In this document: positions 33,020-64,000 of the stretch, piece after piece | Numbering within the stretch: position 1 is the stretch's first letter | How the letters are laid out: the number at the start of each line of letters is the position of its first letter | Source of the DNA: Eledone cirrhosa | Lineage: Eukaryota | Length of the DNA: 64,000 bases | Assembly (NCBI GenBank): GCA_964016885.1 | Contig: OZ024750.1 | Span: forward strand, 52,514,001 to 52,578,000 | Direction: 5' to 3' | Program-made: the position numbers and the translations under genes | Notes under the pieces: generated by a model | What the model was told of the DNA's origin: nothing | Database searches by the model: none | Seen by the model: only the letters and a program-made list of their open reading frames with translations

Positions 33020-33086
33020 TTCTGATTTTTGCGTTTCGTTTCGCCTTTTCTACCCGCCGAAATGCGATTCTCGCTAAATCTATATT

Positions 33087-33087
<1 letters not shown>

Positions 33088-33166
<79 letters not shown>
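33088..33166. repeat. (TA)n microsatellite; further long (TA)n tracts at 34497-34590 and 35763-35850
   Basis: Read directly. Confidence 0.97.
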
Positions 33167-33169
<3 letters not shown>

Positions 33170-34485
33170 GACCGTAGTGCCTTGCCCAAGGGAAACCCTC
33201 GCCAAGATGGAGCGCGCGCTCTGGGAAACCCTCGCCAAGATGGAGCGCGCGCTCTTCGTATTCCTTTGGAAGAGACGGGCTCCCTTGGTGAGGAGATCCA
33301 TCTGCTGTCAACACCCTTCGAAAGGAGGGCTGGGGATGCCGTGGCTAATGATGCGTAAACACGCATTAAGGCTACGGCACCTCCACGTATTCTTCACCGG
33401 TCAACCGGTGTGGGCATCGTTTGTGAGACGAACCTTTCCCAGACTCGTCTCACTCACCGAGCTGCAATCCTGGGTCAAGCAAAGACCGCGAAAACTGGGC
33501 GCCTGGCACACTGAGTGTGCCCAGGCGCTCACCGCCCTCTGGCAGGCGGATCCGGTTATCAGTGGAGACTCCACCGCAACATTCTATGGAGGGCTGGTAC
33601 GCAGCAGGTGCGATGACGCCCTCGGAGAAGCCCTAGACATGGAGGAAGACGAACTGGCCAGCCTGTTCGGTAGGACATTCAGCCCGGGACCTATGGACAA
33701 CTTCCAGAAGTCCCTGGCCTGGCAGTGCTACCGAGGGGCTCTACCCGTTCGAGAAAATCTCTACAGACACGGGCGCCAGGGTAGGGACCCCGCCAAAAAG
33801 ATCTGTCCCAGATGCGTGTGCGACGAGGAAACCGTTGCACACGCATTGGTACATTGCTCGGGCGTAGCCGATCTGTGGGGCTATGTCGAACAACTGCTGT
33901 CAAGGGTGGGACCGATCCGGTTGACCACCGAGTCTATTGTAATGATCAAGCCGCCTCACCCCTTCAAAGATGAAGGAGAGGCGGTGTTTCTGTGCGTAAT
34001 AGCCATGGTGAAAGAAGTTGTATGGTGGACGCGTCTAAAAGGACTGAGGTCAGGCACCTTTCTCTCTGGCCAACAACTGGTCCGTTTCTTCCGATATCAT
34101 TTCGGAAGAAGGATCAGGATGGAGAGAGAGGTGCTGCACCCCAGTCGTTTTTATGAAAGGTGGGTGAAAGTGGCGAGAATGGCCCGTGTGAATGGGCCTT
34201 CTCTTTACATAAGCCTGTAGGTGGAAAAGAGGAAGGAACGAAGGAGCACCCCCTCTCTGTGCTCCCGAGGAGAAGGGTTGCACACTTTTTTCGGGGGTGT
34301 GTGCGACCCCCCCAAGGCGCCTCCTCTCTATTGAGGATTCTGTTATAAATTTTATTTTTTGTTATATTTTATTTTATTTTTATATTTTGTTATTGCCTCC
34401 TCCATATTGAGAACGCCTTGTTTTGTAAACTCCCCCCATTGTACTTGTCCCACTTTTGATGCCCTGGTGGCAAATAAAAGAAACA
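33167..34485 (+). mobile_element. Tx1/L1-group LINE, 5'-truncated (ORF2 C-terminus + 3'UTR), inserted in (TA)n
   Basis: Open 347-aa frame 33177-34220 with a C-terminal zinc finger CPRC..ETVAHALVHC, homologous to the ORF2 end of 58303-63764. AATAAA at 34473-34478. Confidence 0.9.
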
Positions 34486-34495
34486 TATCTATCTA

Positions 34496-35090
<595 letters not shown>

Positions 35091-37082: not shown

Positions 37083-37187
37083 GAACCAATCGGAGAGTCT
37101 TCACACGGTCGCTCGAATTGCTAGAAATAGCAGCCAAAATTCGCTAAATTTACACGATACGGCGTTGAGATGATCACCACTGAACAT

Positions 37188-39068
37188 TACAGAGACTGAC
37201 GGGATGGATATATACACGGAGACTAACAGGACATATATATATACACGGAGACTAACAGGACAGATATATACACGGAGACTGACAGGACATATATATACAC
37301 AGAGACTGACAGGACATATATATACACGGAGACTGACAGGACATATATATACACGGAGACTGACAGGTCAGATATATACACGGAGACTGACAGGACAGAT
37401 ATATACACGGAGACTAACAGGACAGATATATACACGGAGACTGACAGGACCGATATATACACGGAGACTGACAGGACCGATATATACACGGAGACTGACA
37501 GGACATATATATACACGGAGACTGACAGGACATATATATATATACACGGAGACTGACAGGACTGATATATACACAGAGACTGACAGGACCGATATATACA
37601 CGGAGACTGACAGGACATATATATACACGGAGACTGACAGGACATATATATACACGGAGACTGACAGGACATATATATACACGGAGACTGACAGGACATA
37701 TATATATACACAGAGACTAACAGGACAGATATATACACGGAGACTGACAGGACATATATATACACGGAGACTGACAGGACTGATATATACACGGAGACTG
37801 ACAGGACTGATATATACACGGAGACTGACAGGACATATATATACACGGAGACTGACAGGACATATATATATATACACGGAGACTGACAGGACTGATATAT
37901 ACACAGAGACTGACAGGACCGATATATACACGGAGACTGACAGGACATATATATACACGGAGACTGACAGGACATATATATACACGGAGACTGACAGGAC
38001 ATATATATATACACGGAGACTGACAGGACATATATATATACACGGAGACTGACAGGACAGATATATACACGGAGACTGACAGGACATATATATACACGGA
38101 GACTGACAGGACATATATATATACACGGAGACTGACAGGACAGATATATACACGGAGACTGACAGGACCGATATATACACGGAGACTGACAGGACCGATA
38201 TATACACGGAGACTGACAGGACCGATATATACACGGAGACTGACAGGACATATATATACACGGAGACTGACAGGACATATATATATATACACGGAGACTG
38301 ACAGGACTGATATATACACAGAGACTAACAGGACAGATATATACACGGAGACTGACAGGACATATATATACACGGAGACTGACAAGACAGATATATACAC
38401 GGAGACTGACAGGTCAGATATATACACGGAGACTAACAGGACTGATATATACACAGAGACTGACAGGACAGATATATACACGGAGACTGACAGGACTGAT
38501 ATATACACGGAGACTGACAGGACAGATATATACACGGAGTCCTATATATACACGGAGACTGACAGGTCAGATATATACACGGAGACTGACAGGACAGATA
38601 TATACACGGAGACTGACAGGACTGATATATACACGGAGACTGACAGGACAGATATATACACGGAGACTAACAGGACTGATATATACACAGAGACTGACAG
38701 GATTGATATATACACAGAGACTGACAGGACTGATATATACATGGAGACTGACAGGTCAGATATATACACAGAGACTAACAGGACTGATATATACACGGAG
38801 ACTGACAGAACTGATATATACACGGAGACTGACAGGTCAGATATATACACGGAGATTGACAGGTCAGATATATACACGGAGACTAACAGGTCAGATATAT
38901 ACACAGAGACTGACAGGTCAGATATATACACGGAGACTAACAGGTCAGATATATACACAGAGACTGACAGGTCAGATATATACACAGAGACTGACAGGTC
39001 AGATATATACACGGAGACTAACAGGTCAGATATATACACAGAGACTGACAGGTCAGATATATACACGG
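37188..39068. repeat. 27-bp minisatellite (GGAGACTGACAGGACAGATATATACAC)n with variable TA tract, ~68 copies
   Basis: 9-aa periodic translations (IYTRRLTGQ) and a 330-bp internal block duplication (37531 vs 37861). Confidence 0.96.
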
Positions 39069-39340
39069 AACAGAAGAATCACCGGAGCATTTCACAAAAG
39101 AGGTGAACTTCGCCTTTCATTTTGCCAGGTGGGATAAAATAAAGTAGCACTCGTTCTTTAAAGGTGATTTGGTTGCTTGTGTGTGTGTGTGTGGGGGGGG
39201 GGTCACTGAAGATCGAAGGGGACCAAGCCGACCTCACTCCCATGCGTGGGTCCCTGTGAAAGCGTTTCTGATAATGCTTTGCTAATGAGGGTCTGTGTAT
39301 GGAAAAAAATATGAACGATAATATTACATACAACAACAAC

Positions 39341-41460: not shown

Positions 41461-44400
41461 TGATGGCTGTCCCCTCGTTATCGAGTATGACCATTGCACG
41501 AAAAAAAAAAATATTAATAACAATAATAATAATAATAACAACAATAATAATAACGACAACAACAACAATAATAATATACATATATATATATATATATATA
41601 CACACACGCGCACACATAAACATATCTATACACACACACACACACGATAGCAATTAACAGCGCTGCGATCGAATGTGGCTTTTTAGCCCAGCCAATGATC
41701 TAAATTGTCTTGCACAGAGTCGGCAACCAAAACATTCACTGGGAATAGCCGGCTGTAGTTGGAGTTCATGTACTTTTGCATGCTGCTTGAGCCCTCCTGC
41801 TGATTTACATTCTCTACCACATGTTTGGTAAGCATGATGAGTAGCATCTCCAACAGCAGCCTGGTAGTCAACCACTGGTCTTACTTTATGACTGCGAAGA
41901 TGACTTTCGAGTCCAGCTTTGCTTAGGCAGAGTCTCGCACAGACGCTGCATGTCAGCACCATAGGAGGACCCTCGCCGTCTGGAAGTGCAACAGCAATGC
42001 CCTTCCTCATATCCCGCTTTACTTTCTCGTATGCGATTCGAGATGCCTCAAAGGCAACTTTCCTCTCATATACAGTCTTTCTCCATTTATTACGATCAGC
42101 AGCAATATTTTCCCATGTATCAGCAGAGATGTTAGCATCTTTCAGAGAGGCTTTCAAGGAATCCTTATACCTCTTTTTTGGTTTATGTGGCGGTCGTTTT
42201 CCTTTAACCAACTCTCCATAAAAGAGTTGTTTTGGTATTCTAGAATCCTTCATCCTGGCAAGGTGACCACTCCAACGGAGTCGTTGCTTAAGCACAAGAG
42301 CTTCTATACTGTCACACATAGAGCTTTCCAAAATCTCGACATCACTGATGTGGTTCCTCCAGTGAACGCCATGGATCCGTCTGAGACACATCTGATGGAA
42401 ACGCTCCAATTGCTTAAGGTGGTGTTGATATGTGACCCAGGTCTCGCAGGCATAAAGAAGAGAAGAGAGCACACGTGCCTTGTACACCTTTACCTTTGTC
42501 CTCCTGCATATGTCTCGCCGACCCCAGAGTCGCCTTTCTAGCTTTCCGAAAACATCACTTTCTTTCCTAATCCTAAGTGAGATTTCACTGTCAAGGTTGC
42601 CGTATCGATCGACAGTGCTTCCCAGGAAGACAAACTGATCAACCACTCCAAGTCGTTTACCATACACATAGATATTTGGTTCACTGTACTGCTTACTAGG
42701 GGCAGGTTGGTACATGACGACGGTTTTCTTGAGACTGACAGTCAATCCTAGGGCAGTGCAAGCATCAGAAAATACATTCAAAATGTGCTGCATATCACTC
42801 TCTGTATGCGCTACAAGATCGCAATCATCTGCATACAAGAGATCTCTTATGATTGATGCAATACTTTTGTCTTTGCAGCAAAGCGCCTGATGTTAAATAT
42901 GCTGCCTGAGGTTCGATATGCAATACAGAAATGCAATACAGAAAACCATTGCAGAGTATATGGCAAACAGGGTCGGTGCTGGAATATCCCCCTGTTTCAC
43001 TCCATTTTTTACTGAGATAGGCTCCGACATGTTACCTCCTACATTAACCCAAGCCTTCATGTCGTCATGCAAAGACCTAACTAAAGCAAAGAACTTATCA
43101 GGGCAACCAAGTTTCTGGAGAACCTTCCATAATGCATTTCTGTTAACTGTATCGAAAGCTTTTGTCAGATCGACAAAAACCTGATACAGATCCAAACCTT
43201 GTTCCATGCACTTCTCCTGGAGCTGTCTAGCTGAGAAGATCATATCAGTAGTGCCGCGTCCAGCACGAAAACCAGATTGACTTTCAGGAAGAACACAATC
43301 TGCAATGTGTGTCAGCAGACGGTCCAGAAGCACCCTACATAAAACTTTCCCTGCGACAGAAAGCAATGATATACCTCTGTAGTTCCCACAATCATTCCTG
43401 TTACCCTTTCCCTTGTACAAGACCACCATTACTGCATCTCTCCAGTCCTCAAGTACGGATTCATTAGCCCATATCCTGCCAAACAAAGAGTGAAGATGTT
43501 GCAGGAGTCTCTCACCACCATATTGTAGGTGCTCAGCATGTATGCCATCCATACCTGGAGACCTTCCACTGTTCAGCTTCGAGATAGCCACTGCAACCTC
43601 CACAAGCGTCGGGGGTTTTGCGAGAGCTACTTTCACAGGACTTTCTGGAATGAGATTGAGGAAATCTTCATTGACGACAGACAGCTGATTCAAAAGATCA
43701 TCAAAGTGCTCTCGCCACCTTCGTAGAATTCCTTGTGAGTCACGAAGAAGTTCTTTGCCATCCTAGCTGCGAAGCGGTGTCACCAGAGAAGAAGACGGTC
43801 CATAAACCTCACGTAAGAGACTGTACAACAGCTTTGTGTTATTGGAATCTGACGCAGTTTGTATCTCATCAGCCTTCTCAATCCACCACTGATTCTTCAT
43901 CTGAGAAAGACTCCTCCTAACACGTGATTTCACATCCTTGAGTTCCTTATGCAACGTATTCTTCTCCTGTGGTTTTGCCGTCAAGTAGCGTGACAGAGCA
44001 CGCCTCTTATCAGCCAACAAGTCTTCTATATGTACATCATTCTCATTAAACCAGTCCTGATGTTTTCTCTGCACCAATCCCAGAACACGCATGCCTATAT
44101 CATAAACCGACCTTTTAAGGGTCGGCCAATCCTCAGCAAGATCTGCAACCTGCATCTCTTCTTGCAATGTCCTCTTCACATTTTTATCCTGAAGACGAGC
44201 AGCATTCAATCTTCTGGGCAGGGCAACACCAGGAGCCCGGATTTTACGTTTAGTGATTAGTTTCACTTTTGCGCGTACCAGGCGGTGGTCCGTCCAGCAC
44301 TCAGCTCCACGAAGAGCACGAATACACTGCACATCCTGTCTGTCACGCATCCTGACTAGGACGTAGTCCAAAAGATGCCATTCCTTAGATGCAGGATGCA

Positions 44401-45338: not shown

Positions 45339-46440
45339 TTTCTTTATTAACCACAAGGGCTTACACAAAGTAGACATTAAGGACAGTACAGGACAATACA
45401 GGACGGTACAAATGGAAAAAAGTTAATCAGGGCATCACCGAAGAGATAAGTGCTCGCCTTCAGCCCTTTCAAACGTGTCCACCATACTATCTCTTTCGCC
45501 ATGGCCACCAGACAGATAAAAACTGCCTGCCCTTCCCGGCTAAAGGAGGAGGGTGGGGCAATCCTCACGATGGACTCAGCTGATAGTTGGATCCGTTCTA
45601 AACGCGACAGCAGGTGTTCGACATAAACCCACAAGTCAGTAATGCTCGGACACTGGACGAGTACATGCAGGACGGTTTCGTCGCCCTGCGCGCATCTCGG
45701 ACATTCCCGGCTGATGGCACCTCCATTCCTGTAGAGTTTATCCCGAACTGGCAAAGCTCCTCGGTAGCACTGCCAGGCCAGGGATTTCTGGAAGTTGTCC
45801 ATAGGCCCCGGCCCGAAAGTTCTTCCAAAGAGATTGGCTAGTTGATTTTCGTCGACGCCTAGAGTTTCCCCAAGTACGTCGTCGCTCTTCCCCTCCACTA
45901 ATCCTCTATAGAACGCCAAGGTGGCTTTCCACCGATCACATTGCCCGATTGGTCGAGGGCTGTAGCGCCTGAAGACATTCCAGTCTCCAAGCGCTCCCTC
46001 TCGGTCTTCGCTTGACCCAGGACTGCAGCTCCGTCAAGGAGATGAGCTGGGGAAAGATGCGTCTAGCAAACGGCGACCACACCTGATCACCGTCGAGGAA
46101 GAGGTGGAGATGTCGTAGCCTGAGCGCGTGTCTGCGCATCATTAGCCACGGCATGCCCAGCCCTCTGCGTAGCGGGTGTTGACAGCAGATGGACCACCTG
46201 ACCATCGGAGCGCGTCCCTTCCACAAAAAGCGAAAGAGCGAACGCTCCAGCGCAGTCAGGCGAGGCTTAGGACAAGGCACGGCGGTTAGGCGGTAGTAGA
46301 TGACGGACGCGATGTACGCGTTAGCCACCTCCGCTCGACCTTTCAGGGATAGCTTCCTCTCCGCCCATTTCTGGGTGACAGAAGTCACCTCGTCCCAGTT
46401 TTTGTCTGTCTGGAGGTCCGGACCGAACCAGACCCCTAGC
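45339..46440 (-). mobile_element. Tx1/L1-group LINE, 5'-truncated, with an internal deletion near the 3' end
   Basis: LGVWFG...CPRCAQGDETVLHVLVQC. Ends in AATAAAGAAA. 9-bp TSD AATTAATGC at 45330-45338 and 46441-46449. Confidence 0.92.
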
Positions 46441-46700
46441 AATTAATGCAATCGTGCAATGCCTGTGCGTGACGAATATTTTTAAAGTGAGGAAAGACTG
46501 TGCACTTAGCCAATCCCACTCTCTGAGCGCCATTAGCTATAACCCGAAAAGAAGAAAAGATCAACATCATCGGTAACTACTGAGCCACAGGTTTTATGTC
46601 GGAGTTAACCCAGTTTTCTGAGATGCCTTCTCCTAGAAGAATGCCCTGACAAGGGCTAGGGGTTCTTCACTCCCAGTGGTTTAACTGCGCGAATGGTGTA
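46441..46700 (-). mobile_element. RTE family 1 5'UTR arm
   Basis: Homologous to the 5'UTR of the RTE at 54250-54378 (shared CAATCCCACTCTCTGAGC, CCCGAAAAG, TCAACATCATCGG) and to 49520-49705 and 63890-64000. Confidence 0.85.
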
Positions 46701-46910
46701 TTCAGCCCGATTTTTTCTCTGTCCCCGCGCATAAAAAAACAAAACACAACTCACTTATTGACACTTATACGTACGACATACACACACGCGCGCACACACA
46801 CATACATATGCGCGCACACACCAACACTCATACATACAAACACACACACGCTACTCACTTACACACACACATATATATATATATATATTACCGTCATTAC
46901 TGATACAAGA

Positions 46911-47064
46911 TTACAAGATTATGTCAACTGTTGACTTTCAAGAGCTCGGAGCGTGGAGAGCCATAGCTCTATGCTGTAAAGCAATTATAATAATACTGAA
47001 CTGTAACACGAACAGCTTCAACTATACGAACTCTTGAAAGTCAACAGTTGACATAATCTTGTAA
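46911..47064. mobile_element. 154-bp MITE-like element with perfect 34-bp terminal inverted repeats
   Basis: TTACAAGATTATGTCAACTGTTGACTTTCAAGAG at 46911-46944 and its exact reverse complement at 47031-47064. No clear TSD. Confidence 0.65.
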
Positions 47065-47117
47065 CATACATACATACATAGATACAAACACACCCACTTG
47101 GCAAAAAAACTAACGAC

Positions 47118-49429
47118 CAGAACCTGATGTATAAGATATATACAGCCTGCCTGAACCTATTCCTCCAAGATCACTGTGAAAATAATAACATCATCACAGA
47201 TGAACAAGCAGCTGGAAAGAAAGGGATTTGGGGATGTGCTGAACAACTCCTAATCAACAAAACTGCGATGTCGGAGGTGCGACAACTTAGGAGGAAAATG
47301 GCTACAGTCTGGCTGGACAACAGGAAAGCTTTCGATTCTGTTCTCCACTCTTGGATGATAGAGGCTCTCCAACTTGCTAAAGTCCCAGACATTATTGTCA
47401 GAGCCATAGAGAGGCTGTCTTCTTCTTGGGCTACTATCCTAAGGTTAAAGACAGAGAGGGGGGACTCTATTTTCACTGACAAAAAAAAATATTGCAGGGG
47501 TATATTTCAGGGGGACAGTCTCTCTGTGATATTGTTCATCTTGTCATTAAACCCCTTGTACTTTCTGCTCAAGAAATGTGAGGGATACATCATTGGCTCA
47601 TAGGAGGACAGAAATATGAACCTAACCCATAATTTCTCTGTGGATGACCTGAAACTCTATGCCAAGGACATGGATGGGATGAAGAAAAATCTTGACCTGG
47701 TTACAACGTTCTCAAAGGATGTAGGAATGGAGTTTGGCCAAGATAAATGCTCATATATGACTGTAAAGCGGGGTAAAACAATAACCCAATATAGCAACAT
47801 TGTCATCAATGGCATAACTGTTTCACCGATATCTGATGAGGACTGCTACAGATACCTGGGGATAGATGAGAACATATCCTATAATGGTATCTGTAATAAG
47901 GAACGCGTAATCAGGGAATACTACACCCGATTAAGAAAGATATGGTCCCCGGAACTCTCTGCGCAAAACAAAACAGTGGCTCACAATGTGTTTGCTGTGC
48001 CTGTCCTAACACCAACGTTTGGAATACTCAATTGGACGATAGACGAAATCCGAGCAGTTGATGTTGGAACTCGAAAAATACTGAACAACGCCGGAAACTT
48101 CCACATCAACAGTGACATAGACCGCCTTTACTTGAAACGTAAGTAGGAGGCAGAGGCCTAACATCAGTCCAGACAACATTTGAATGTCGCATCATATCTC
48201 TCCGACAACATCTACGAACCTCGAAGCGTAGGAACCCGTCTCTCGAGCAAGTCTATCTGCATGAAACAGATAAGATCATGAGAGTTGGGAAGGAACTCCT
48301 CGAGAGATATTCCCTGTGAGATAATCAAAAACTCACACCCAGGGATACGCTCAGCAGTATCGCAGTGAATTCATGGATGAAAAACTGTATGCTTATCAGC
48401 AAAAAATCATGCATGGATACGTTGCCAGGAAGCTCCAAAGTGAGAGTAATATAGATAAGGAAAGTAGTCTATCTTGGACCAACAACCGCTGTATTGGCTC
48501 CCACTTTGAAGGATATGCTTTTGCAATCCCAAAACAGGAGATTAACACGAAATACCTGATTCATAAAAGAGATAGGGATGCAGGCAAAACACCTAGATGA
48601 GTTAACAAGTGCAGACTGCAAAACTAACATCGAGGATATCGCCCATGTCATCAGCAGCTGTCCAAAGATGTCATCGCGGTACTATCTACCTATGAGGCAT
48701 GATGTAGTGGCCAAAACACTGTACAATGAAGTTCGTAAAAAAGATAGCCCCAATAATAAACACATTAAAAGCTACAGCAATGTGGAAGACATCCATGTAC
48801 ATAATATGAAAGAGTATTGGTGGAATGTTCCACTAAAAACCCCAATAAAATGCAGGCATAAGGGACCAGATATTATGATATGGGACAGGGAGAAGAAAAC
48901 ATGCACAGTAGTGGAAATTAGCTGCCCAGAAGATGCCAATATAACATCAAAGATTACTGAAAAGGAGAATATTTATGCAGAACTGATGAGAAATCTGCAG
49001 ATACTCCACCCTGATTACACCTTCAGATTTATGCCTGTGATTATTGGGACACTGGGATATGTTAGTAACTGCCTCAATACAAATCTTGAGAAGCTGGGCT
49101 TCACAGGAACAGAAAGAACACAACTAGTTAGGAAATTACAAGTACAATCCATTGATGGAACAGTAAAAATATGTAAAACATTCCAAACATTTTGCATCTA
49201 ATAACTGCATATACACATGTACAGATGCAAAGCATATACACATCCACACATACAACTCAAAACATACAAATCCACACATACAATAACATCCATATCTACA
49301 CATGCATGCATACATACATATCTACCTAGTTGATGTTGTGTAAATTCCAATGAGAGAGTCTTGTGTCTATGTTAGAAACCGACTCTCTCTCTATTGGCAA
49401 AACTTTGTGAAATTATAAAACCAGAAGAA
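47118..49429 (+). mobile_element. R4/Dong-clade LINE family A (RT + restriction-like endonuclease), 5'-truncated and degenerate
   Basis: RT motifs KAFDSV, GIFQGDSLS and VDDLKLY. C-terminal CCHC, RHD and PD-(x)n-E RLE motif. Ends AAAACCAGAAGAA(CATA)n. Confidence 0.9.
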
Positions 49430-49455
49430 CATACATACATAAACACATACATACA

Positions 49456-49705
49456 TGATGGCTGCCCCCTCGTTATCGAGTATGGCCATTGCATGATATA
49501 CCATTATTAATAATTATTAATTAATTCTATCGTGCAATGCCTGTGCGTGAAGATATTTCTTTTAAGTGAGGAAATCCCACTCTCTGAGCGACAGTAGCTA
49601 TAACCCGAAAAGAAGAAAAGATCAACATCATCGGTAACTACTGAGCCACAGGTTTTATATCGGAGTCATCCCAGTTTCCTGAGTTGCCTTCTCCTAGAAG
49701 AATGC
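49456..49705 (-). mobile_element. Bipartite non-autonomous RTE derivative (5'UTR part + AT-rich linker + 3' tail), family 1
   Basis: 5'UTR homology at 49528-49705 is joined via a 29-bp AT linker to the RTE 3' terminus at 49456-49498. (CATA)n on both flanks. Confidence 0.8.
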
Positions 49706-49721
49706 ATACATACATACATAC

Positions 49722-50385
49722 ATGGTGGCTGCCAACTCGTTTTCGAGTACGGCCACTACTTTATATCCATGTAGAAGAACCCCTACCGATGCGCTGAACG
49801 AGTGTGATTTTTTAGTCTAGCCAGCGACTTGAAAACTCTGGTACAAACACTACACTTGTGACAATTATTGACACATAGTGCTGGGCCCATGGTACCATGT
49901 GACGACAAGTGCAGAGAGATCTCCAGATATAAAGCAATGCCTGTGCGTGAAGCTTTTATAGTGAGCAAAGGCACTGCACAAAGCCAGTCCCACTCTCTTA
50001 ACCAAGATGATATTTACCAAAAAGAAGTCAACATCATTGGATACCATCAGAGTTGCAGGTGTTATATCAGAGTTTTCCTTCTCCTAGAATTCTGCCTTGA
50101 CAAAGACTAAGGGGTCATCTCTCTCGGTGATTTTGGATGGCCATTGATTCTTAAGAGTTCCTTTGCCCTTTGACAGGTTTTGTTTTTAGTCCTGCAGGAT
50201 GTCCAAAGTCACCCTCCTCACCAAGAAACCTTGGTGAGGTTGCCAGTTTAGTCGCCAACGACCCGACCATGAGACAGGTTGTACTGGGATACATGTTACC
50301 AGTAGCACTAACTGGTGACCAACTGGTGACCAACTGGTGACCAACTGGTGACCAACTGGTGACCAACTGGTGACCAACTGGTGAC
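49722..50385 (-). mobile_element. Internally deleted RTE family 3 element (long 5'UTR + last zinc finger + 3' tail)
   Basis: 5'UTR homology from 49920. C2H2 remnant CSVCTRVFKSLARLKNHTRSAH*. RTE-type terminal hairpin, an 11-bp tandem repeat at the 5' end, and (CATA)n on both sides. Confidence 0.8.
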
Positions 50386-50431
50386 ATACATACATACATA
50401 CATACATACATACATACATACATACATACAT

Positions 50432-50695
50432 ACAGTAAAAATATGTAAAACATTCCAAAAATGTTGTATCTAATAACATCTAATAACTGCATATACACAT
50501 GTACAGATGCAAAGCATATACACATGCACACATACACATCCACACATACAATAACATCCATATCTACACATGCATACATACATATCTACCTAGTTGATGT
50601 TGTGTAAATTCCAATGAGAGAGTCTTGTGTCTATGTTAGAAACCGACTCTCTCTCTCTATTGGTAAAACTTTGTGAAATTATAAAACCAGAAGAA
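50432..50695 (+). mobile_element. R4/Dong family A 3' fragment
   Basis: Matches 49159-49429. Confidence 0.9.
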
Positions 50696-50712
50696 CATAC
50701 ACACATACACAC

Positions 50713-53700
50713 ATGATGGCTGCAAACTCTGCCAAGAGTATTGCAATCGCTTGTCAGATTCAGATGTGGGACGCTCGGATATGGCTTTTCAAGCCTGCTA
50801 GAGACTTGCACTCCTTCACACACTGACGACAACTATGGATCTCCCTGGCTTGAGGTCCCGCATCAGGTTGCCCGTGAACCCTCACAACACCGTGGAGATC
50901 ATAGTTCACTGGTTCTCTTTGAACATGGCTGCGACTGTGGCTCCTGAGACCAGATTTGCTCCAGTACATTTTTCCACACTCAAGGCACTTCAATTCAATG
51001 GAGACACCGATCGTTTCGAGAGATTCACCAGGGCATTGCTTACGCATATCCCGTTTGATCTTCTCGTGTTCTATGAGTCTGTCCTCAAAATTATGGACCC
51101 CATCATTCACCATTCCACGCCAAGTCTCTCTTTCAAGAGCTTCTATCTCCTAGTCAGCCATCATCAAACTAGTTTTTTTCAATAAGTCCTTTACACAATC
51201 CTTGAATCGGAGCTTTAGTTTGTGTGGTTGTCTCTTACCCTCACAAAGCTCGCCTTACAAGAGTTGTTTTGGGACTCGATCATCATCCATTCTGCAGAGG
51301 TGTCCGGTCCATCGCAAACGCCGTTGGTGGATGATACTCTCAATGTTCCGACACTCACTTCTCTCAAGGACCTCAACATCACTCACATGCATCTGCCACT
51401 TGATACCAAGCATCTTTCTGAGACACTGCTGGTGAAACCGTTCCAGACTGTGGATATACCGTTTGTAGGCAACCCATGTCTCACATGCATACAGCAAAGC
51501 TGATAGTACACATGCAGCACACACTCTTACCTTGGTCCTCATTGTGATTCCTCGCTTGCACCAAAGACGGTCGTTGAGCCTTCCAAATGACTCACTGGCC
51601 TTAAAACACGTAGACCAACTTCTGCATCCAGAGAGCAGGTCACACTCAGAGTACTCCCCAAATACACAAATGTGTCAGCAGCCTTCAGCTTTTGACCGTA
51701 TACGTGTATGGAGGTTTCATTGAAAACTTTATCCAAAGTAGGCTGGTACATGACGACAGTCTTCTTCAGACTGATTGTCAGTCCCAAAGCAATGTACACA
51801 CTGGAAAAAGAATCCATAAGGTGTTGCATGTCACTCTGGGAGTGTGCAAAGAGATCACAATCATCTGCATATAAAGATTCTCTGATCAAGGTACTCAGTA
51901 CCTTAGTGTTGGCAGTGAGACGCCTGAGGTTAAACAGCTTGCCGGAAGTGTGATATCTGAGATAGATACAGTGTTGACAATCCTTGAAGGCCATGAAGAA
52001 CACCATCGCGAAATACAAGGCAAACAAAGTTGGTGCAGGTATATCACCTTGCTTGACACCATTTTCAACCTAGATTGGCTCAGACAGTTTACCTCCAACA
52101 TTCACCCATGCCTGCATGTCATCGTGGAAGAGTTTCAGAATATTCACAAACTTTTCAGGACAGCCCAATCTCTCCAAAATAATCCACAAAGCCTTCCGAT
52201 TAACGGTGTCAAATGCTTTGGTCAGATCGACAAAAACTTGGTATAAGTCCATGCGCTGCTCAATGCATTTCTCTTGAAGTTGTCTGGCCGAGAAGATCAT
52301 GTCAACAGTGCCTCTGCCATTCCTAAAGCCACATTGGGACTCAGGAAGTACCTCAACAGCAATGTGCTGTATCAATCTGTCCAACAATATCCTGCACAAG
52401 ATCTTCCCAGCCACAGATAGCAGTGAAATACCTCTGTAGTTGCCAGTCATCTTTGGCTCCCTTTCCTTTGTAAAGTACCACCATCAATGTATCTTTCCAA
52501 TCCTGTGGCACATCTTCTTCGTTCCAACCATTCACAAAGAGATCAGTGAGGCGGTTTAAGAAGTTATCACCAGCACACTTGAAAATCTCAGCACTCAGTT
52601 CATCCATTCCAGGTGACTTGCCGCTGTTTAATTTGGCAATGGCCTTCGCCACCTCATCAAATGAAGGAGGATCAGCCATTGCCAGCTTTGTAGGTCTGGA
52701 TGGAATCGACCCGATGAACTCATCACCAATTTCTGATGGTCCGTTGAGAAGCTCAACAAAGTGGTCATGCCACCTGATCAGGATTTCCTTCGGATCTCTG
52801 AGCAATCATTGCCGTTCCCGAAGCGAAGTGGTGATATTCGTGAACCGGTTGTACCATACACCTCCCTGAGCAGACTGTATAAGAGCTTTGTATCATGTCT
52901 ATCTGAGGCCTTCTGGATTTCATCAGCCTTTTGGCTCCACCAGGTACCCTGCATGGCTCTCAATCGATGTTGCACACGTGCCTTGATCTGCCTGAAGGTC
53001 CGGTTACTCCCGTCAGAACGTGTCTCACACAATAATGATGTCAGCACTTTTTGTTTCTCTTCAAGCAAAGTCTGGATCACTGGATCATTTTCATCGAACC
53101 AGTCTTTATGCTTTCTATTGGTATGACCCAAAAGTCCAGCACTAACATCATAGACGGTTTTCTTCAATGATTCCCAAGTGGTTTCACATTCCATCGACTC
53201 AAGGGACCTCGACAGCTCAGCTCTGACTTTCTCTGTTTTCAGACGAGCCACATTTAGTTGTTTTGGAAGTGCAACCTTCTTCCCCTTTACTTTGGGCTTC
53301 ACAGACAATGATCAGTCCAACATTCCGCACCTCGCAATACTCGAACCAATGTGATATCCCTGATATCACGTTTTCTCGTTAAAACGAAGTCAATAAGGTG
53401 CTACTTCTTGGAACCTGGATGCATCCAAGTTGTCTTATATTTGTCTTTCTGCTGAAAGAGCGTGTTCCCAACAACAAGATCCATCTCAGTGCACATCTGC
53501 AACAGAAGTAGACATTTGTTATTGCACTTACCTACTCCATGCCGGCCCATCACACTCCAAGCTTCCCAGTCATTACCAACACGTGCATTAAAATCACCAA
53601 GGATGACAATCTTGTCTGCATAAGGTATACCATGGATGACCTCTCTCAAAGACATGTAGAAACTTAGTTTTTCATCATCACTAGCACACATAGTAGGAGC

Positions 53701-54378
53701 GTACACACTGACCAGAGTCACAAAGCGGTTTTGAATCAGAGGGACTCTCATGGACATTATTCGATCATTGAATCCACGAGGAAGATTTTGCAGCTTTGAG
53801 ACGATTCCATTCCTGACAGCAAATGCGACCCCTACCTCTCTCCTACAACCCTCCGGTCCACCACTCCAATAGAAGGTATATCCTCCCTTCTGTGAATTGA
53901 CCCTCACCAGCCAATCTCGTTTTTGAAAGAGCAACGATGTCCATGCTATAGCGATCGAGTTCCCTTGACACCAAAGCTGATCTTTTCTCAGGACAAGTTT
54001 TACTGGACTGGGAATCCAGTAAAGTTCTCATATTCCAACATCCAATATTCAGAGGTTTGAACCTCCTTGCAGTTGTAGGATGACGACCGGGCCCACGCTG
54101 CGGTGCCATGGGACACCTGCAGGGCCAGACTCCTTCACATTAAGTTCCAGAGCCCTTACTGCCATTGAGCTCAAGGTTATCATCTGTCATCATAGAGTTT
54201 GTTGCACTTCTAGGCTACGGCCAGCCACACGAACCTGTAACAGGTCCTGAAACAAGCGATTCCTGTGCTTTGAGGGTTTTTTAAGTTGGGAAAGGCCTTG
54301 CACGCGACCAATCCCACTCTCTGAGCATCGAAAACACTACCCGAAAAGGAGAACTGGTCAACATCATCGGATACTTCC
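50713..54378 (-). mobile_element. RTE (BovB-like) LINE family 2, near full length, frameshifted
   Basis: ORF start MAPQRGP..IGCWNMRTLLD at 54109. Motifs GDFNARVG, NYRGISLL, FVDLTKAFD and LYADD, two C2H2-like fingers, stop at 50760-50762, and part of the 5'UTR retained. Confidence 0.94.
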
Positions 54379-54396
54379 AACACATGCATACATACA

Positions 54397-55938
54397 TATC
54401 AGTAATAAGGAACGCATAACCAGGGAATATTACACCCGATTAAGAAAAATATGGTCATCGGAACTTTCTGTGCACAATAAAACAGTGGCTCGCAATGTGT
54501 TTGCTGTGCCTGTCCTAACACCAACGTTTGGAATACTCAATTGGACGATAGACGAAATCCGAGTAATTGATATTAGGACTCGAAAGATTCTAAACAATAC
54601 CGGAAACTTCCACATCAACAGTGACATAGACCGCCTTTACTTGAAACGTAAGTAGGAGGTAGAGGCCTAACATCAGTCCAGACAGCATTTGAATGTCGCA
54701 TCATATCCCTCCGACAACATCTACGAACTTCAAAGCGAAGGAGCCCGTTTCTCGAGCAAGTCTATCTGCATGAGACAGATAAGATCATGAGAGTTGGGAA
54801 GGAACTCCTCGAGAGATATTTCCTGTGTGATAATCAAAATCTCACAGCCAGGGATGTCGCTCAGCAGTATCGCAGTGAATTCATGGATGAAAAACTGTAT
54901 GCTTATCAGCAAAAAATCATGTATGGATATGTTGCCAGGAAACTCCAGAGTGAGAGTAATATAGATAAGGAAAGTAGTCTATCTTGGACCAACAACCGCT
55001 ATATTGGCTCCCACTTTGAAGGATATGCTTTTGCAATCCCAAAACAGGAGATTAACACGAAATACCTGATTCACAAAAGAGATAGGGATGCAGGCAAAAC
55101 ACCTAGATGTGACAACAAGTGCAGACTCTGCAGAATTAACATCGAAGATGTCACCCATGTCACAGGCAGCTGTCCAAAGATGTCATCGCGGTACTATCTA
55201 CCTATGAGGCATGATGTAGTGGCCAAAACACTGTACAATGCAATCCGTAAAAAAGATAGCCCCGATAATAAACACATTAAAAACTACAGCAATGTGGAAG
55301 ACATACATATACATTATATGAAAGAATACTGGTGGAATGTTCCAGTAAAAACCCCAATAAAATGCAGGCATAACAGACCAGATATTATGATATGGGACAG
55401 GGAGAAGAAAGCATGCACAGTAGTGGAAGTTAGCTGCCCAGCAGATGCCAATATAATATTAAAGATTAGCGAAAAGAAGAATATTTATGCAGAACTGAGA
55501 AATCTGCAGATACTCCACCCTGATTACACCTTCAGATTTATGGCTGTGATTATCGGGGCGCTGGGGTATGTTAGTAATTGCCTCAATAGAAATCTTGAGA
55601 AGCTGGGCTTCACAGGAACAGAAAGAACACAACTAGTTAGGAAATTACAAGTACAATCCATTGATGGAACAATAAAAATATGTAAAACATTCCAAAAATT
55701 TTGCATCTAATAACTGCATATACACTTGTACAGATACAAAGCATATACACATGCACACATACAACTCAAAACATACACATTCAATAACATCCATACCTGC
55801 ACACACACGCATACATGCAGACATACATATCTACCTAGTTGAATGTTGTGTAAATTCCAATGAGAGAGTCTTGTGTCTATGTTAGAAACCAACTCTCTCT
55901 CTATTGGCAACAATTTGTGAAAATATAAAACCAGAAGA
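54397..55938 (+). mobile_element. R4/Dong family A, 5'-truncated
   Basis: Colinear with 47888-49429. Motifs CRLC..HVTGSC, RHD and HNRPDIMIWD..VEVSCP. (CATA)n on both flanks. Confidence 0.92.
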
Positions 55939-56006
55939 TACATACATACATACATACATACATACATACATACATACATACATACATACATACATACATA
56001 CATACA

Positions 56007-56050
56007 TGGCGATGGCTGCCCCCTCGTTATCGAGTGCGGCCATTGCGCGA
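56007..56050 (-). mobile_element. RTE family 1 3' terminus (left arm of a bipartite element whose 5' arm is at 63871-64000)
   Basis: Matches 41461-41501 and 49456-49498, with the CTCG-ATAA-CGAG hairpin and a (TGTA)n tail. Confidence 0.8.
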
Positions 56051-56052
56051 AA

Positions 56053-56110
<58 letters not shown>

Positions 56111-56121
56111 AATAATAATAA

Positions 56122-58166
56122 TACTGGAAGATTGTCATAAAAGGCACAAAAATCTTACTGGAAGATTGTCATAATAGACACAAAAATCTATCAATTGCTT
56201 GGATAGATTACAAAAATGCATTCGATAGTTTGCCACACAGTTGGATTGAAAAGTGTTTAGAGATTTTCAAAATATCTCCCGTTGTCAGGAGGTTTTTGTC
56301 ATTCAGTAAGAAGACATGGAAAACAACACTCCTTTTGAATAGTGAAAAAAAATCACTGGAAGCTGGAGAAGTTAATATTAATTGTGGAATGTTTCAGGGT
56401 GACTCTTTATCCCCGCTTTTATTCTGCATCGCGCTTATGCCATTAAGTAAAATGCTCAATGAAACAAAACATGGATATAAAGTCTATGACAAAACCATTA
56501 ATCACTTGTTCTACATGGATGACCTGAAATTATTTGCAAAAAATGATGAACAATTGCAAGGGCTATTATCCACTGTGGAGCAGTTCAGTGATGACATTAA
56601 AATGAAGTTTGGACTAGATAAATGCGCCAAAATTCACCAGAGGAAAGCTGCTGAAGAGTTCGGACATTAATCTTGATCGGGGGAATGTGATAAGAGAACT
56701 TGATCAAGAGGAAACTTACAAATATCTAGGTATTTGTGGAGGAGACGGAATCAAGCATTCGACAATGAGGGAGAGGATAAGGAAGGAATGTTACCGCAGA
56801 GTAAGAGCAATCTTAAGAACGGAATTGAATGCAAAGAATAGGATCGCTTGCCATACCAGTAGTAACCTACAGTTACAATGTCATCAACTGGTCAAGCACA
56901 GAGATCCGTAGGCTCGATACAAAAATTAGAAAATTCTTAACCATGCACAGAATGCATCACCCTAAGGCAGATACAGATAGAATATATCTCCCTATGAAAG
57001 AAGGAGGACGTGGGTTAATCCAGTTAGATATTGCTTTGAAAACTGCAACAATTGGATTATCTACATATCTAAGGGAGGCACATGATTGCATGATCAAACT
57101 CGTTTTGAAACACGAAAGCATCAAAAGATCATACTCCATTACAAAAGATGCACAAAGATACAGTAATGAACTACAAATTTCAGAAGTTCTATTTACTGCT
57201 GAAATGAAAAACACAGAAAAAGCAAAGCAGGTAAAAGTAACTGCAAAGAAAGAACTGCTACAGAAACTGGCTAAGAAATGGCAAGAAAAGCCTCTGTATG
57301 GAAAATACCCAGAAAGAGCTAACAATCCTGATGTTGACAAAACTTTAACCCATCGGTGGTTAGAATCCTCTGGACTGAAATTGGAGACTGAAGGACTGAT
57401 TATATCAGCACAAGATCAGTGTCTGCTAACAATAAAAAATGGATGCAACCCATTATGCCGTGTATGTAAAAAAACAACCAGAGACCATTGATCATATAAT
57501 TTCAATGTGCAGTCCTATAGCTCTAACCGAATACCTAAACAGGCATGACAGAGCTGCACAATACATACATTGGATAATGTGTAAGCATTTTGACCTGCCC
57601 CATCAAAAGAATTGGTGGGAGCATCAACCACCTCTCGTACTTGAAAAAGATCACATCTCAATCTTGTGGAACTTTAGCATCCAAACAGACCGAAAAATAG
57701 ATGCAAATAGACCTGATATAATACTGAAGGACTTTAAAAAGAGGGTATGCCTGCTAATTGCTAAGTCCGTTCCAATAGACAAGAATGTGTCTATAAAAAC
57801 ATTTGAAAAATTAAGCAAGTATAAAGACCTGGAGATAGAAATTGTAAAAATGTTGAAGTTAAGAACTAAAACAATACCAGTGGTTGTAGGCGCTCTGGGA
57901 ATGATACCTAAGGGGTCTAATGATTACTTATCCAAAATCCCAGGAAACCCGCGTATAGAAGAAATTCAAAAGATAGTACTAATGGGAACTGCCCATATAC
58001 TAAGGAAGATTCTGTCAATATAAGTACATCACAAGTCTAAACACCTAAAGATGCATGTGTGTGTGTATGTGTGTTCATTTCTTGAACATGGCGGACCTAG
58101 TTGTCTCTTGAGATTACTGGTTGTGACTTGGTGATGACTCGTATGAACATAAAGCAAGATAAATGC
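56122..58166 (+). mobile_element. R4/Dong-clade LINE family B, 5'-truncated, in (AAT)n
   Basis: Motifs AFDSLPHSW, QGDSLSP, YMDDLK, CRVC..DHIISMC, RHD and NRPDI; stop at 58021-58023. (AAT)n on both sides, as for TAA-targeting Dong elements. Confidence 0.9.
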
Positions 58167-58306: not shown

Positions 58307-58489
58307 TTTCTTTATTGGCCACAAGGGCTGACATCAAGAAAAACATTACAGACGGCACAGGACGGTACAGGAGAGTACGATGTGGGTTTTGTGCGTGTAA
58401 AGATTTTTATTATTTATATAAGAAAAGAAAAAAGGACATAGAAACATATATATATAAACAATAAAAATGAAAAATTCCCCAATAGGGGA

Positions 58490-61400
58490 ACAGCTGTTCA
58501 ACATAACTCCACAAGTCAGTAATGCACGGACACTGGACGAGTGCGTGCAGAACGGTTTCGTCGCTCTGCGCGCATCTTGGGCAGGTCCGTCTGACAGCAC
58601 TTCCGTGCCTGTAGAGTTTATCTCGAACCGGCAGTGCCCCCCGGTAGCACTGCCAAGCGAGGGATTTTTGGAAATTATCCATCGTCCCCGGCTCGAAAGT
58701 CCTCCGGTACAGACTGGTTAGTTCGACTTCGTTGATTCCCAGAGCCTCTCCGAGTGCGTCGTCGCACTTGCCCACCACTAATCTTCTATAGAACTCGAGA
58801 GTGGAAGTTCCACTGACCGCATTGCCCGCCTGGTAGAGGGCAGTGAGTGCCTGGCAACATTCCAGATGCCAGTCACCCAGTCTCGGTCTCTTCTTGACCC
58901 AGGACTGCAACTCAGTCAAAGAAACGAGCTGCGGAAAGGCCCGTCGGACAAACGGCGACCACACCTGTTCACCGTTTAGGCAGAATATCTGGAGATGCCG
59001 CATCCTCAGCGCGTGCCTGCGTATCATTAGCCACGGCATGCCCAGCCTTCCACGTAGAGGGTGCTGGCAGCAGATGGACCGCCTCACCAGCGGAACCTGA
59101 CCTCTCCACAAGAATTTGAAGAGGAGCCGCTCCAAGATGGCGAGGCACGAACGGGGGCAAGGGACGACAGTCAGACGGTAGTAGATGACGGACGCGATGT
59201 ATGCGTTCGCCACCTCCGCCCGACCTTTCAGTGATAGCTTCATCCCAGCCCATTTCTGGGTGAGACTGATTACCCTGCCCGTCACCTCGTACCAATTCTT
59301 ATCCACCTGGAGGTCTGGCCCGAACCAAACCCCTAGCAACTTTACCGGTCCGTCCGTCCAGCGCCTAACGACGCTGTTGGACGGCATGGACTTGCCTCTC
59401 CAGGTGCCGAGTTGCAAGCCTACTTACTTTCCGGGTTAAGTTTTGCTCCCGTCAACCTTTCATATTCCTCCAATAAGTTGCCGACCACCTCGATTTCTGA
59501 GGTGTCCGACACCATCACGGTGATGTCGTCCGCATAAGCCGACACAGCCTTTCCGCGTCCCGGTTCGAGCGGGATGCCCTGCAACAGCTCCAGCTTCCGC
59601 AGTAAAGGCTCGAGAGTCAATACGTACAGAAGGGAGGAGAGAGGGCACCCTTGACGGACCGATAGGGAGACCTGAAACGGTTCCGAGAGGTGGCCATTAA
59701 TTTTGACCATCGAACAGGCGCCGCTGTGCATTGCAGCGATCCAGACTCTGAAGACGGAGCCGAAGCCAGCCGCCCTGAGGAAGCCTCCAGGTACCGATGG
59801 TTGACCCTATCGAATGCTTTCGATTGATCTAAATTGATCAGAGTCCCACCGAAGCCAGGTTTACACCCTACCCTCTCTATGATGTATCGCATTAGGTGGG
59901 GGTTGTCGTGTATGGACCTGGTTGGGATTGCGCAAGTTTGCGCCTCCCCAAACAAATCCCCGACGACAAACGCCAACCTCTTCGCTAACACCCTGGCCAA
60001 AATCTTAAACTCTGTGTTGAGCAGAGTTATGGGCCGGAAATTGTCTAATGTGTACCTCTTGTTCTCGTCTTTCCTTATCAGCGTCACTACGCCCCGGCTC
60101 ACAGAACTGGGAATACTCCCGTTTTGCTGCCAGTTGCAGTAGAGGGCTTCGAGGAGATTGGAGAACAAGTCTGGCATATTTACGTAAAGCTCGTAGGGCA
60201 GACCATCCAAACCGGGTGACTTGCGCCTCATGCAGCCTACAAGGACATCCTGAATCTCGGCTGAAGTAATTGGCCTTTCGCAGCGCCCAGCGTCAACCGT
60301 CGAGAGTTGCGGCAAGCCATCGAGGTAGGGACTGAAGTCCGCCACCATCTCTGACCCGCCACTTCCCCCGAACAACCGAGCAAAATGTTGGTGAAAGGCC
60401 TCACACATCCTCTTGGAATCGCTCAGCTCGTGCGTCAAAGACCGAATCGTGGTTTTATTACCACGCTGCGCCTCTGCCACGCGGGCGCATCGAACAGCTT
60501 TGGTTCCCTCGTTTCTCAGGGCACGCGCCTTAGCTCTGACAATGCAACCTTCGTGTTTCGCATTGAAGAAATGGTGTAATGCCATTCTCGCCGCTAGCAC
60601 ATCAGTTGCAATGCCACTACCAATAGCCTCGTCTAACTTATCTACCAACTCCCCCTCCTTTCTATTTTTCTCTAATGCTACTTCTTTGCTAAACTCTATC
60701 GACATTACTCTAATCTCTCTTTTGAGAGCCCCCCACCAGTTGATGACTCCCCTTGTCAACTTTTTCTTAACTAAATTGTTGACCTGGGCCCTGTAAGCCT
60801 TACGTGCCGGAAATGACATGTTTAGCTTCCAGTAACCAGGTCCTAACCTACGCGTCTTATCTAGGTCGACCATACACATCACAAACTTGTGATCTGAATA
60901 GGCGACCGTTTCAAAACGTGGACAGCTTACTCTATTCCTGTCTATTTTCCTAATGAATATCCTGTCTATATACGATCTAGATGACCCTATGCGGTTAGCC
61001 CAGGTCCACACTGGCGCATTAGGGAAATCTAGTCGGTACCTGTCAGACAGTTGGAACTGGCTGATCAGGTTCTTGAGGCTTTTGCACCCCCCGCTCCTAT
61101 CGGATACTCCCACACAGTCCCAGCGTGCGTCTAAGATGCCGTTCCAGTCCCCCGCTAACAGTAAAGGGCGAGACGTACCCAGAAAGGCTTCCAGGCGTCT
61201 AAAGAAGTCCGGCCGTCCTGCCCCAGTAGGAGCATAGACGGCCACCAGTCTAAAGGCACCACCTTCATTATTGTTCACGTCTAGGACCACCAACTTCCCA
61301 TCCGGGTCCCAGAAGATCGACCTTACCTCGAGATCCAGGCCTTTCCTAAACAGCACTGCCACCCCTCCTCCCATTCCCGGTCGATGCAAAGATCTGATAG

Positions 61401-63870: not shown

Positions 63871-64000
63871 AACACTATTAATAATTACTAATTAATTCTA
63901 TCGTGCAATGCCTGTGCGAGAAGAATATTTTTAAAGTTAGGAAAGACTGTGCACTGAGCCAATCCCACTCTCTGAGCGACAGTAGCTATAACCCGAAAAG
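63871..64000 (-). mobile_element. RTE family 1 linker + 5'UTR arm, runs off the right edge
   Basis: Matches 49500-49612 and 45311-45338 plus 46441-46550. Confidence 0.85.

Follow-up and report, generated by a model that had tools for sequence, protein, structure and literature searches.

In a 64,000-nt stretch of the Eledone cirrhosa genome (contig OZ024750.1, here G000:C10:52514001-52578000 and called the window throughout), part of a microsatellite-rich assembly of 3.0 Gb, we analysed three retrotransposon families, F1, F2 and F3, which probably belong to the RTE clade and whose 5' untranslated region (UTR) contains a segment, the 5' arm, complementary to a segment just before the 3'-terminal hairpin of the same element, the 3' arm. 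This complementarity is particular to each family, conserved in position, and found generally in RTE lineages well outside this genome, and the pairing is very probably real and selected. As judged from sequence comparison, it seems reasonably likely that the helix docks a predicted 5' pseudoknot on the 3' hairpin and so completes a split signal that the RTE protein would bind before target-primed reverse transcription (TPRT).

Thirteen RTE lineages were compared, five from this genome (F1 to F5) and eight from metagenome contigs, with reverse transcriptase (RT) identities of 40-79%, and the segments to be paired were set by conserved flanks and not by pairing (the 30 nt that follow the 5' motif and the 35 nt that precede the terminal hairpin). 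Between the two ends of one lineage, the best contiguous helix had a mean of -13.4 kcal/mol, as against -4.8 (sd 2.5) for 156 mismatched pairs, none of 200,000 permutations reached the cognate total, and the highest-ranking partner was the lineage's own in 11 of 13 rows and in 8 of 13 columns. In 10 of the 13 lineages the helix (8-16 bp) begins 2-4 nt past the motif and stops 0-3 nt short of the hairpin, so that the complementarity which the initial annotation had reported from three families recurs at homologous positions in other RTE lineages. F4, L051 and L053, which form one subgroup (RT identity of F4 to the other two 77-79%), show by eye, at the anchored place, 4-5 bp of helix, then an internal loop and a 6-9 bp helix, and cross-pair with each other. 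Among 500 dinucleotide shuffles, 2 (F1), 1 (F2) and 0 (F3) did as well as the native ends, and no other 30-nt tile of these elements paired equally with the 3' segment (0/137, 0/125 and 0/129, respectively). Furthermore, full-length members of F1, F2 and F3 carry both arms 3.5-3.9 kb apart, and the complementarity is therefore independent of short derivatives. The elements thus have complementary segments near both ends that are conserved by matched changes, as expected of a long-range end-pairing replication signal of the cyclisation type. Chance complementarity selected after the fact is a negligible explanation and largely refuted: the helices are only 6-16 bp long and some single cases are weak, but the segments were anchored on flanking motifs, the permutations and the recurring offsets speak against it, and lineages beyond the three first described fit as well.

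As to the sample, the row L101/L072 joins the ends of two copies that are 85.5% identical, and L092, L055, L165 and L113 were left out of the 13-lineage test (in these the 5' motif was present or weak, but the contig had no far end to match it). L060 and L085, with another 5' motif, were examined apart and gave one fit and one miss; the order of stems and the arm are by eye the same in L060 although its motif differs, and it fits at the anchored place with 10 of 11 pairs by eye. In L056 (1590-1625, 5135-5170) a second, adjacent 5'-3' helix extends the pairing to ~22 bp over 30 nt, and shorter extensions occur in L052, L059, L096 and L101/L072.

Within the window, all elements concerned lie on the minus strand, namely one broken full-length retrotransposon (F2) and two short elements (F3, F1), and the eight segments on which the initial annotation had built its proposal were all found where it had placed them; some feature coordinates given here were taken by hand from position rulers and may be one base off. 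The autonomous F2 copy (50696..54378) has a single ORF (open reading frame) for endonuclease, RT and zinc fingers, broken by stops and frameshifts, and its 5' end is probably clipped. Its 5' arm (54251..54261, 11 bp including one G-U) pairs across the ORF with the 3' arm (50744..50755, pairing positions 50755-50745), which lies just after the stop codon at 50762-50760 and is followed by the terminal hairpin (50722..50744; 3-bp stem, internal loop, 4-bp stem, tetraloop). The pairing across the ORF that had been described thus stands, but its outermost A-U pair is rare in the family (three tabulated copies, the commonest 12-mer, in 18 copies, having C there), and the typical layout differs, comprising by eye 9 bp, a 1-nt bulge, and 4 bp.

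The F3 element (49715..50140, 5' start approximate) is a bipartite derivative in which the 5' UTR is joined, with 3-nt microhomology, to the last ~189 nt; its 5' arm (49926..49939) and 3' arm (49754..49767) are followed by a hairpin at 49731..49753. The two G-U pairs noted in this helix are kept in eight of nine tabulated derivative copies, the ninth being Watson-Crick at one of them. That such pairs point to RNA rather than DNA pairing is suggestive only: G-U pairs are indeed fixed in family-typical sequences, but the F1 CpG tally given below lends no support to a strand bias.

The F1 derivative (49440..49703), 5'-truncated and present in at least 2,547 genome copies, carries its arms at 49528..49539 and 49487..49498 and its hairpin at 49464..49486, and has a private deletion of 17 nt in the pseudoknot loop of the upstream motif. 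Its arms are complementary as described, but the supposed 12-bp helix has one C-A mismatch in this copy, at 49494. Among 100 matches listed (2,547 exact genome-wide), the CpG of the arm has the pairing base in 84, the window variant in 10, the G-U variant in 4 and both in 2, the pair-breaking variant thus being no rarer than the G-U variant; because 84 of the 100 pair at that CpG, the mismatch looks like copy decay. A second 3' arm, at 41492..41501, had been called partial; it is in fact complete, pairing in 10 of 10 Watson-Crick positions with a previously missed 5' arm at 46452..46461. Both belong to one autonomous F1 copy split by an insert of ~1.1 kb, with a predicted pseudoknot at 46465..46520 (outside the range annotated at first) and a 3' hairpin at 41469..41491 whose outer stem has U-A where other F1 copies have C-G. 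The insert, at ~46440-45330, is a fragment of another type of long interspersed element (LINE) nested in the F1 5' UTR just after the arm, and similar pieces lie at 33078-34220 and 58410-59423. A further F1 5' module (63899..63969) comprises pseudoknot and arm (63910-63899), with no 3' end within the following 400 nt.

Two broader claims held in part. The arms were said to differ from family to family, and they are family-specific, but not unrelated, since those of F1 to F3 start alike and differ by matched changes. The ends were also proposed to circularise the transcript; they are complementary, but because the 5' arm lies ~240 nt or more inside the element, pairing would close a loop between sub-terminal sites and no covalent circle. 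Terminal inverted repeats of a DNA transposon or a miniature inverted-repeat transposable element (MITE) were rejected, as the arms are sub-terminal and flank an RT ORF, and the elements end in repeat tails.

The motif before the 5' arm is a covarying predicted pseudoknot, new here. It is of the H type, with a 7-bp stem crossed by a 5-bp stem whose 3' strand stops 2 nt short of the arm. In F2 (54265..54318), stem 1 is formed by 54318-54312 with 54291-54284 (one substitution in this copy) and stem 2 by 54303-54300 with 54268-54265; in F3 (49942..49994), stem 1 is formed by 49994-49989 with 49965-49960 and stem 2 by 49980-49976 with 49946-49942. In a sequence-only alignment of 14 lineages, 87.5% was paired, compared with 32-63% in slid controls, and 16 double changes were counted where shuffles gave 6.4 (0/500 as high, in a control that ignores the relatedness of the lineages); at one pair of stem 2, six rows have C-G and six have U-A. 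The 3' hairpin (in the layout given for F2) likewise covaries, as the initial annotation had noted: when 18 ends were aligned blind, 89.3% of cells were paired, with 17 double changes against 5.7 in shuffles (0/500). A 3' hairpin of this sort has already been described for RTE (PMC6007223). All three paired parts therefore covary across lineages, in the order pseudoknot-like motif, 2-4 nt, 5' arm, ~3.5 kb, 3' arm, 0-3 nt, hairpin and repeat tail, and the putative module would consist of pseudoknot, long-range helix, 3' hairpin and repeat tail. Whole-length minimum-free-energy (MFE) folds contain the helix in 6 of 11 elements, and it is present also in the fold of the F3 derivative.

HDV-like (hepatitis delta virus-like) self-cleaving ribozymes occur at RTE 5' ends (cited in PMC5786205) and are, like the motif described here, structured and pseudoknotted RNA of the RTE 5' UTR. 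Our motif, which we take to lack the HDV P3/P4 helix order, lies internally, with a single predicted pseudoknot, and matches no Rfam ribozyme at E up to 5, and on these grounds an HDV-like or twister ribozyme was rejected. A twister ribozyme is known from the 5' UTR of Perere-3 (PMC8501958). An Rfam scan of window positions 46300-54600 gave 12 weak matches, no ribozyme, the clipped F1 copy of the window included, and none to the pseudoknot motif. The first ~100 nt of F1 (5' ends of L184, L187 and L188) contain several self-complementary stretches, possibly a separate 5' structure.

The complementarity fits the bipartite build of RTE derivatives, as had been supposed. Amplified derivatives that join a 5' UTR piece to the 3' end with the ORF deleted were found for F1, F3, F2 and F5, all with both arms as first stated for the short elements of the window, that is for four of the five families of this genome. 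The F1 derivative gave 2,547 pattern matches and has the 5' arm in 28 of 30 copies picked by 3' end, and 28 of 30 F3 copies so picked carry the 5' part, nearly all at one junction, both samples having been drawn with patterns that favour derivative families. Among 30 F2 copies, 5' truncation was seen in 17 (at mostly scattered positions), 8 reach the edge of the locus, an internal deletion was present in 1, and the remaining 4 counted as bipartite (2 clearly). As 5'-truncated insertions are this common, any selection for full length would act on the template RNA and not on the cDNA. No amplified family of 3' ends alone was seen among 60 F2 and F3 copies; upstream sequence is common to the members of two pairs of truncated copies, and in one of these pairs the copies are 3 kb from each other. 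Over the F2 end bins, the depth summed in run X2 contigs, which includes other families with the same motifs, was higher than that of the 5' ORF by a factor of roughly 20 to 100, and deletion joints link 50758-50760 to 54192-54278, probably mostly in one derivative family; F2 coverage in contigs of organisms B and C was too thin to reveal changes in the arms.

Joints of this kind bear on the idea that the pairing acts later in integration, in template jumps or the joining of cDNA ends, with bipartite derivatives as a by-product of RT jumping across the loop. The F2 joints at 50758-50760 lie just outside the 3' arm, several published SINE (short interspersed element) junctions lie within 2-6 nt of the arms, and the F3 junction has its microhomology; this junction, however, is separated from the 3' arm by well over 100 nt, the modules of F5 derivatives are 256 and 344 nt apart, and the family-fixed G-U pairs would be A-C mismatches on the first cDNA strand. 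Moreover, a by-product leaves the matched changes in autonomous lineages unexplained, and we regard this explanation as quite improbable.

The helix can also be followed, as judged by eye alone, in published elements from the supplement of Kojima 2018 (PMC5786205). RTE-1_PSi pairs 177-185 with 3726-3734 (9 Watson-Crick pairs), and RTE-3_AMi pairs 282-291 with 3854-3863 (9 plus one G-U) with a U-A to A-U change relative to RTE-1_PSi. BovB pairs 812-821 with 3797-3806 (10 Watson-Crick pairs), and its derivative BOVA2, for which a test for the same helix had been suggested, matches it with an A-U to G-C change. Helices in two parts occur in RTE1_LA, RTE1-N1b_LA and RTE-11_AMi, the last of which is distinguished from SINE2_Gav by matched changes; mismatches are found in WALLSI1 (one U-U) and SINE2-1_EC (A-C and A-A), and SINE2-2_ACar has a short helix only. 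The 5' motif of the BovB type is different, and the helix therefore spans at least two motif types.

SINEs headed by tRNA or 5S sequences need neither an RNA polymerase II (Pol II) promoter nor translation. SINE-1_Pmo, MonoRep87B and ManaSINE1, which are headed in this way, contain by eye the module as a hairpin with a loop of 4-6 nt (ManaSINE1 keeping of the helix only the part adjoining the pseudoknot), and WALLSI2 and GymnSINE contain it in similar form. It is mainly because non-coding SINEs that RNA polymerase III (Pol III) transcribes keep exactly this module at the 3' end that recognition by the RTE protein would be favoured over a promoter role or a translation switch. A helix that instead controls translation or RNA stability, as a closed loop or as a switch from translation to TPRT, is unlikely to us. 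The arm does lie in the 5' UTR, ~70-110 nt before the ORF in F2 and F1, the 3' arm of F4 lies in the last codons of the ORF, F1 has an alternative local hairpin, and in SINEs a stability role may hold; against this stand the non-coding SINEs that keep helix and pseudoknot motif, and a distance from arm to ORF that varies from ~70 to ~400 nt, whereas the arms keep a constant spacing, to within a few nt, from pseudoknot and hairpin.

The cause of bipartite RTE derivatives is called unknown in PMC5786205, the discussion of which raises transcription-related reasons for the 5' piece. Following that speculation, the piece could be a DNA element (an internal promoter or factor site), and the complementarity a functionless mechanical copy of one end; bipartite derivatives without a head would indeed need a promoter of their own. 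Yet the stems covary instead of conserving sequence, the helices, in contrast to newly made inverted copies, contain G-U pairs, bulges and internal loops, and Pol III-headed SINEs keep the 5' piece as well, which makes this account very unlikely.

Known systems with a close likeness include the bipartite RTE derivatives and SINEs (Bov-A/Bov-tA, AfroSINE, WALLSI, AviRTE SINEs; PMC5786205, PMC4844689, PMC7245038), which are of the same clade and have the same build of 5' and 3' UTR, given in the relevant parts of these papers by sequence only. Similarly, the 3' stem-loop of stringent LINEs, including the RTE/Au-SINE hairpin (PMC6007223), is a covarying hairpin just before the repeat tail, but that signal is local to the 3' end, whereas here a 5' UTR module is predicted to dock from 3.5 kb away. 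The R2Tg 3' UTR (PMC12222951) combines a pseudoknot, a helix and an A-rich single strand, bound by protein to start TPRT, much like the RTE parts; in R2Tg, an element of the restriction-like endonuclease type, these are contiguous within 67 nt of the 3' UTR, whereas the RTE parts are split between the UTRs. The likeness is one of architecture. A term search found no hairpin, stem or end pairing in the main text of PMC5786205, and no end pairing in the accessible text of PMC7245038, PMC6007223, PMC3747384, PMC8501958, PMC13295347, PMC4844689 and PMC13708176. A literature search returned no description of RTE end pairing or of the pseudoknot, which older SINE/RTE work or a patent may mention, and an end-pairing replication signal is apparently undescribed in non-LTR (long terminal repeat) retrotransposons.

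Flavivirus genomes cyclise through 5' and 3' cyclisation sequences, by which the polymerase signal at the 5' end, the SLA promoter, is brought to the 3' end, and in the LTR retrotransposon Ty1 the elements CYC5 and CYC3 form a long-range pairing of the ends. These are an RNA virus and an LTR element, with other enzymes and priming, whereas RTE is a non-LTR element using TPRT. We suggest that RTE may proceed as follows. The helix would form in the transcript and set the 5' pseudoknot beside the 3' hairpin, possibly stacked on it. This composite, rather than the 3' hairpin alone, would be the efficient template signal, comparable to the contiguous pseudoknot and helix of R2Tg. A 5'-truncated copy would give RNA with only half of the signal, whereas an internal deletion would leave it whole, such that only bipartite derivatives amplify. 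In the weakest step of the scheme, scanning or elongating ribosomes might open the helix, so that a complete signal would occur mainly on RNA whose translation has ceased. Tentatively, and with somewhat more doubt than confidence, this may be extended to the whole RTE clade including BovB: a split template signal, in which a family-specific long-range helix delivers the 5' UTR pseudoknot to the 3' hairpin, would serve as an end-to-end integrity check, would be the reason why RTE-mobilised SINEs are reborn bipartite, would represent a flavivirus-like cyclisation undescribed in non-LTR retrotransposons, and would offer a minimal module of ~130 nt for RTE gene-writing templates.

Several observations weigh against recognition of such a docked signal, in addition to the way the F1 and F3 copies were sampled and the relatedness ignored by the pseudoknot shuffles. 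The helix is weak against 500 shuffles in L051 (74), L056 (28), F5 (27) and L052 (15), 20 of the 156 non-cognate pairs match the strength of the weakest cognate, and the cognate partner is best in only the eight columns mentioned. The strongest 3' partner of L060 lies inside the ORF and not in the UTR, and the degenerate copy L085 has no helix at the anchored place. Stem 2 of the pseudoknot is near-palindromic and has double changes at only one of its five pairs, its cognate test was not significant (7,520/100,000), and two of five pseudoknot measures, both of pair type, did not beat shuffles (117/500, 358/500). The helix is absent from the whole-length MFE of F1, F4, L051, L058 and L096, and in the young F1 a 4-bp local hairpin competes for the 5' arm. 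Finally, plant Au-like and TS SINEs are described as having only the 3' end in common with RTE (PMC6007223, PMC3747384), and the 5' half may therefore not be needed in every RTE lineage.

The assignment of F1 to F3 to the RTE clade draws on a single ORF, a short 3' UTR, a repeat tail, and UTR motifs that both resemble named RTE families by eye. Pfam places PF03372 and PF00078 within one 863-aa frame of the F3 copy L036, that is, a single ORF with an AP-type (apurinic/apyrimidinic) endonuclease followed by RT, as in RTE, and finds RT and C2H2 fingers in the F2 frames of the window. The F2 tail begins at ~50712, shortly after the stop codon, in keeping with the short 3' UTR plus simple repeat of RTE; the 3' UTR of F1 is longer and filled with microsatellites. 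F1 is young, and many of its matches have open frames >1,200 aa. In an RT tree without named RTE reference proteins, F1 to F5 cluster with metagenome elements, and RT identities of 70-73% make F1 to F3 sister families. By eye, RTE-1_PSi and RTE-3_AMi have a similar 5' motif and 3' hairpin, and the 5' UTR of F4 (L171-L177, for instance G000:C4:328594600-328600000) is close to the consensus of AviRTE, an element of birds and filarial nematodes, which may bear on the story of AviRTE horizontal transfer. RTE-like elements also occur in contigs filed as bacterial genomes or metagenome-assembled genomes (L131-L138, L144-L148, L163), where eukaryotic contamination is likely; the viral contigs searched contained no relatives.

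Elsewhere in the window, a common sequence of ~250 nt, possibly a shared target repeat, follows the tails of three RTE 3' ends (~50690-50440, ~49430-49160 and ~55700-56000), belonging to F2, the F1 derivative and, from translation, another F1 end. Broken non-LTR elements at 47082-49201 and 54652-57491 flank the RTE cluster and contain a restriction-like endonuclease motif. Near-perfect MITE-like inverted repeats with 183-nt arms (98%) lie at 34593-35005, and a MITE-like hairpin of ~160 nt at 46908-47067 weakly matches a miRNA model. Long satellite of 8/11 nt and other minisatellites, with stop-free frames of thousands of codons, occupy 5454-28747, 6-4650 and 37174-39137.

RTE-1_MD is a gene-writing platform in which the payload is placed between both UTRs, and ancestral reconstruction together with mutational screening has yielded better UTRs for it (PMC13708176). 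Once defined, the helix and the pseudoknot would supply rules for designing RTE templates, and would predict that the arms can be swapped in pairs. If the proposed scheme is true, transcripts of 5'-truncated copies would be poor templates and internal deletions good ones, and translation would open the helix. It would also extend end pairing from RNA viruses and an LTR element to LINEs. The pairing of the ends would offer a base-pair-level account of why SINEs mobilised by RTE repeatedly keep a piece of the 5' UTR together with the 3' end, and by eye the 3' regions of MonoRep87A/B, labelled 'unknown' in PMC5786205, can be assigned to the same module.

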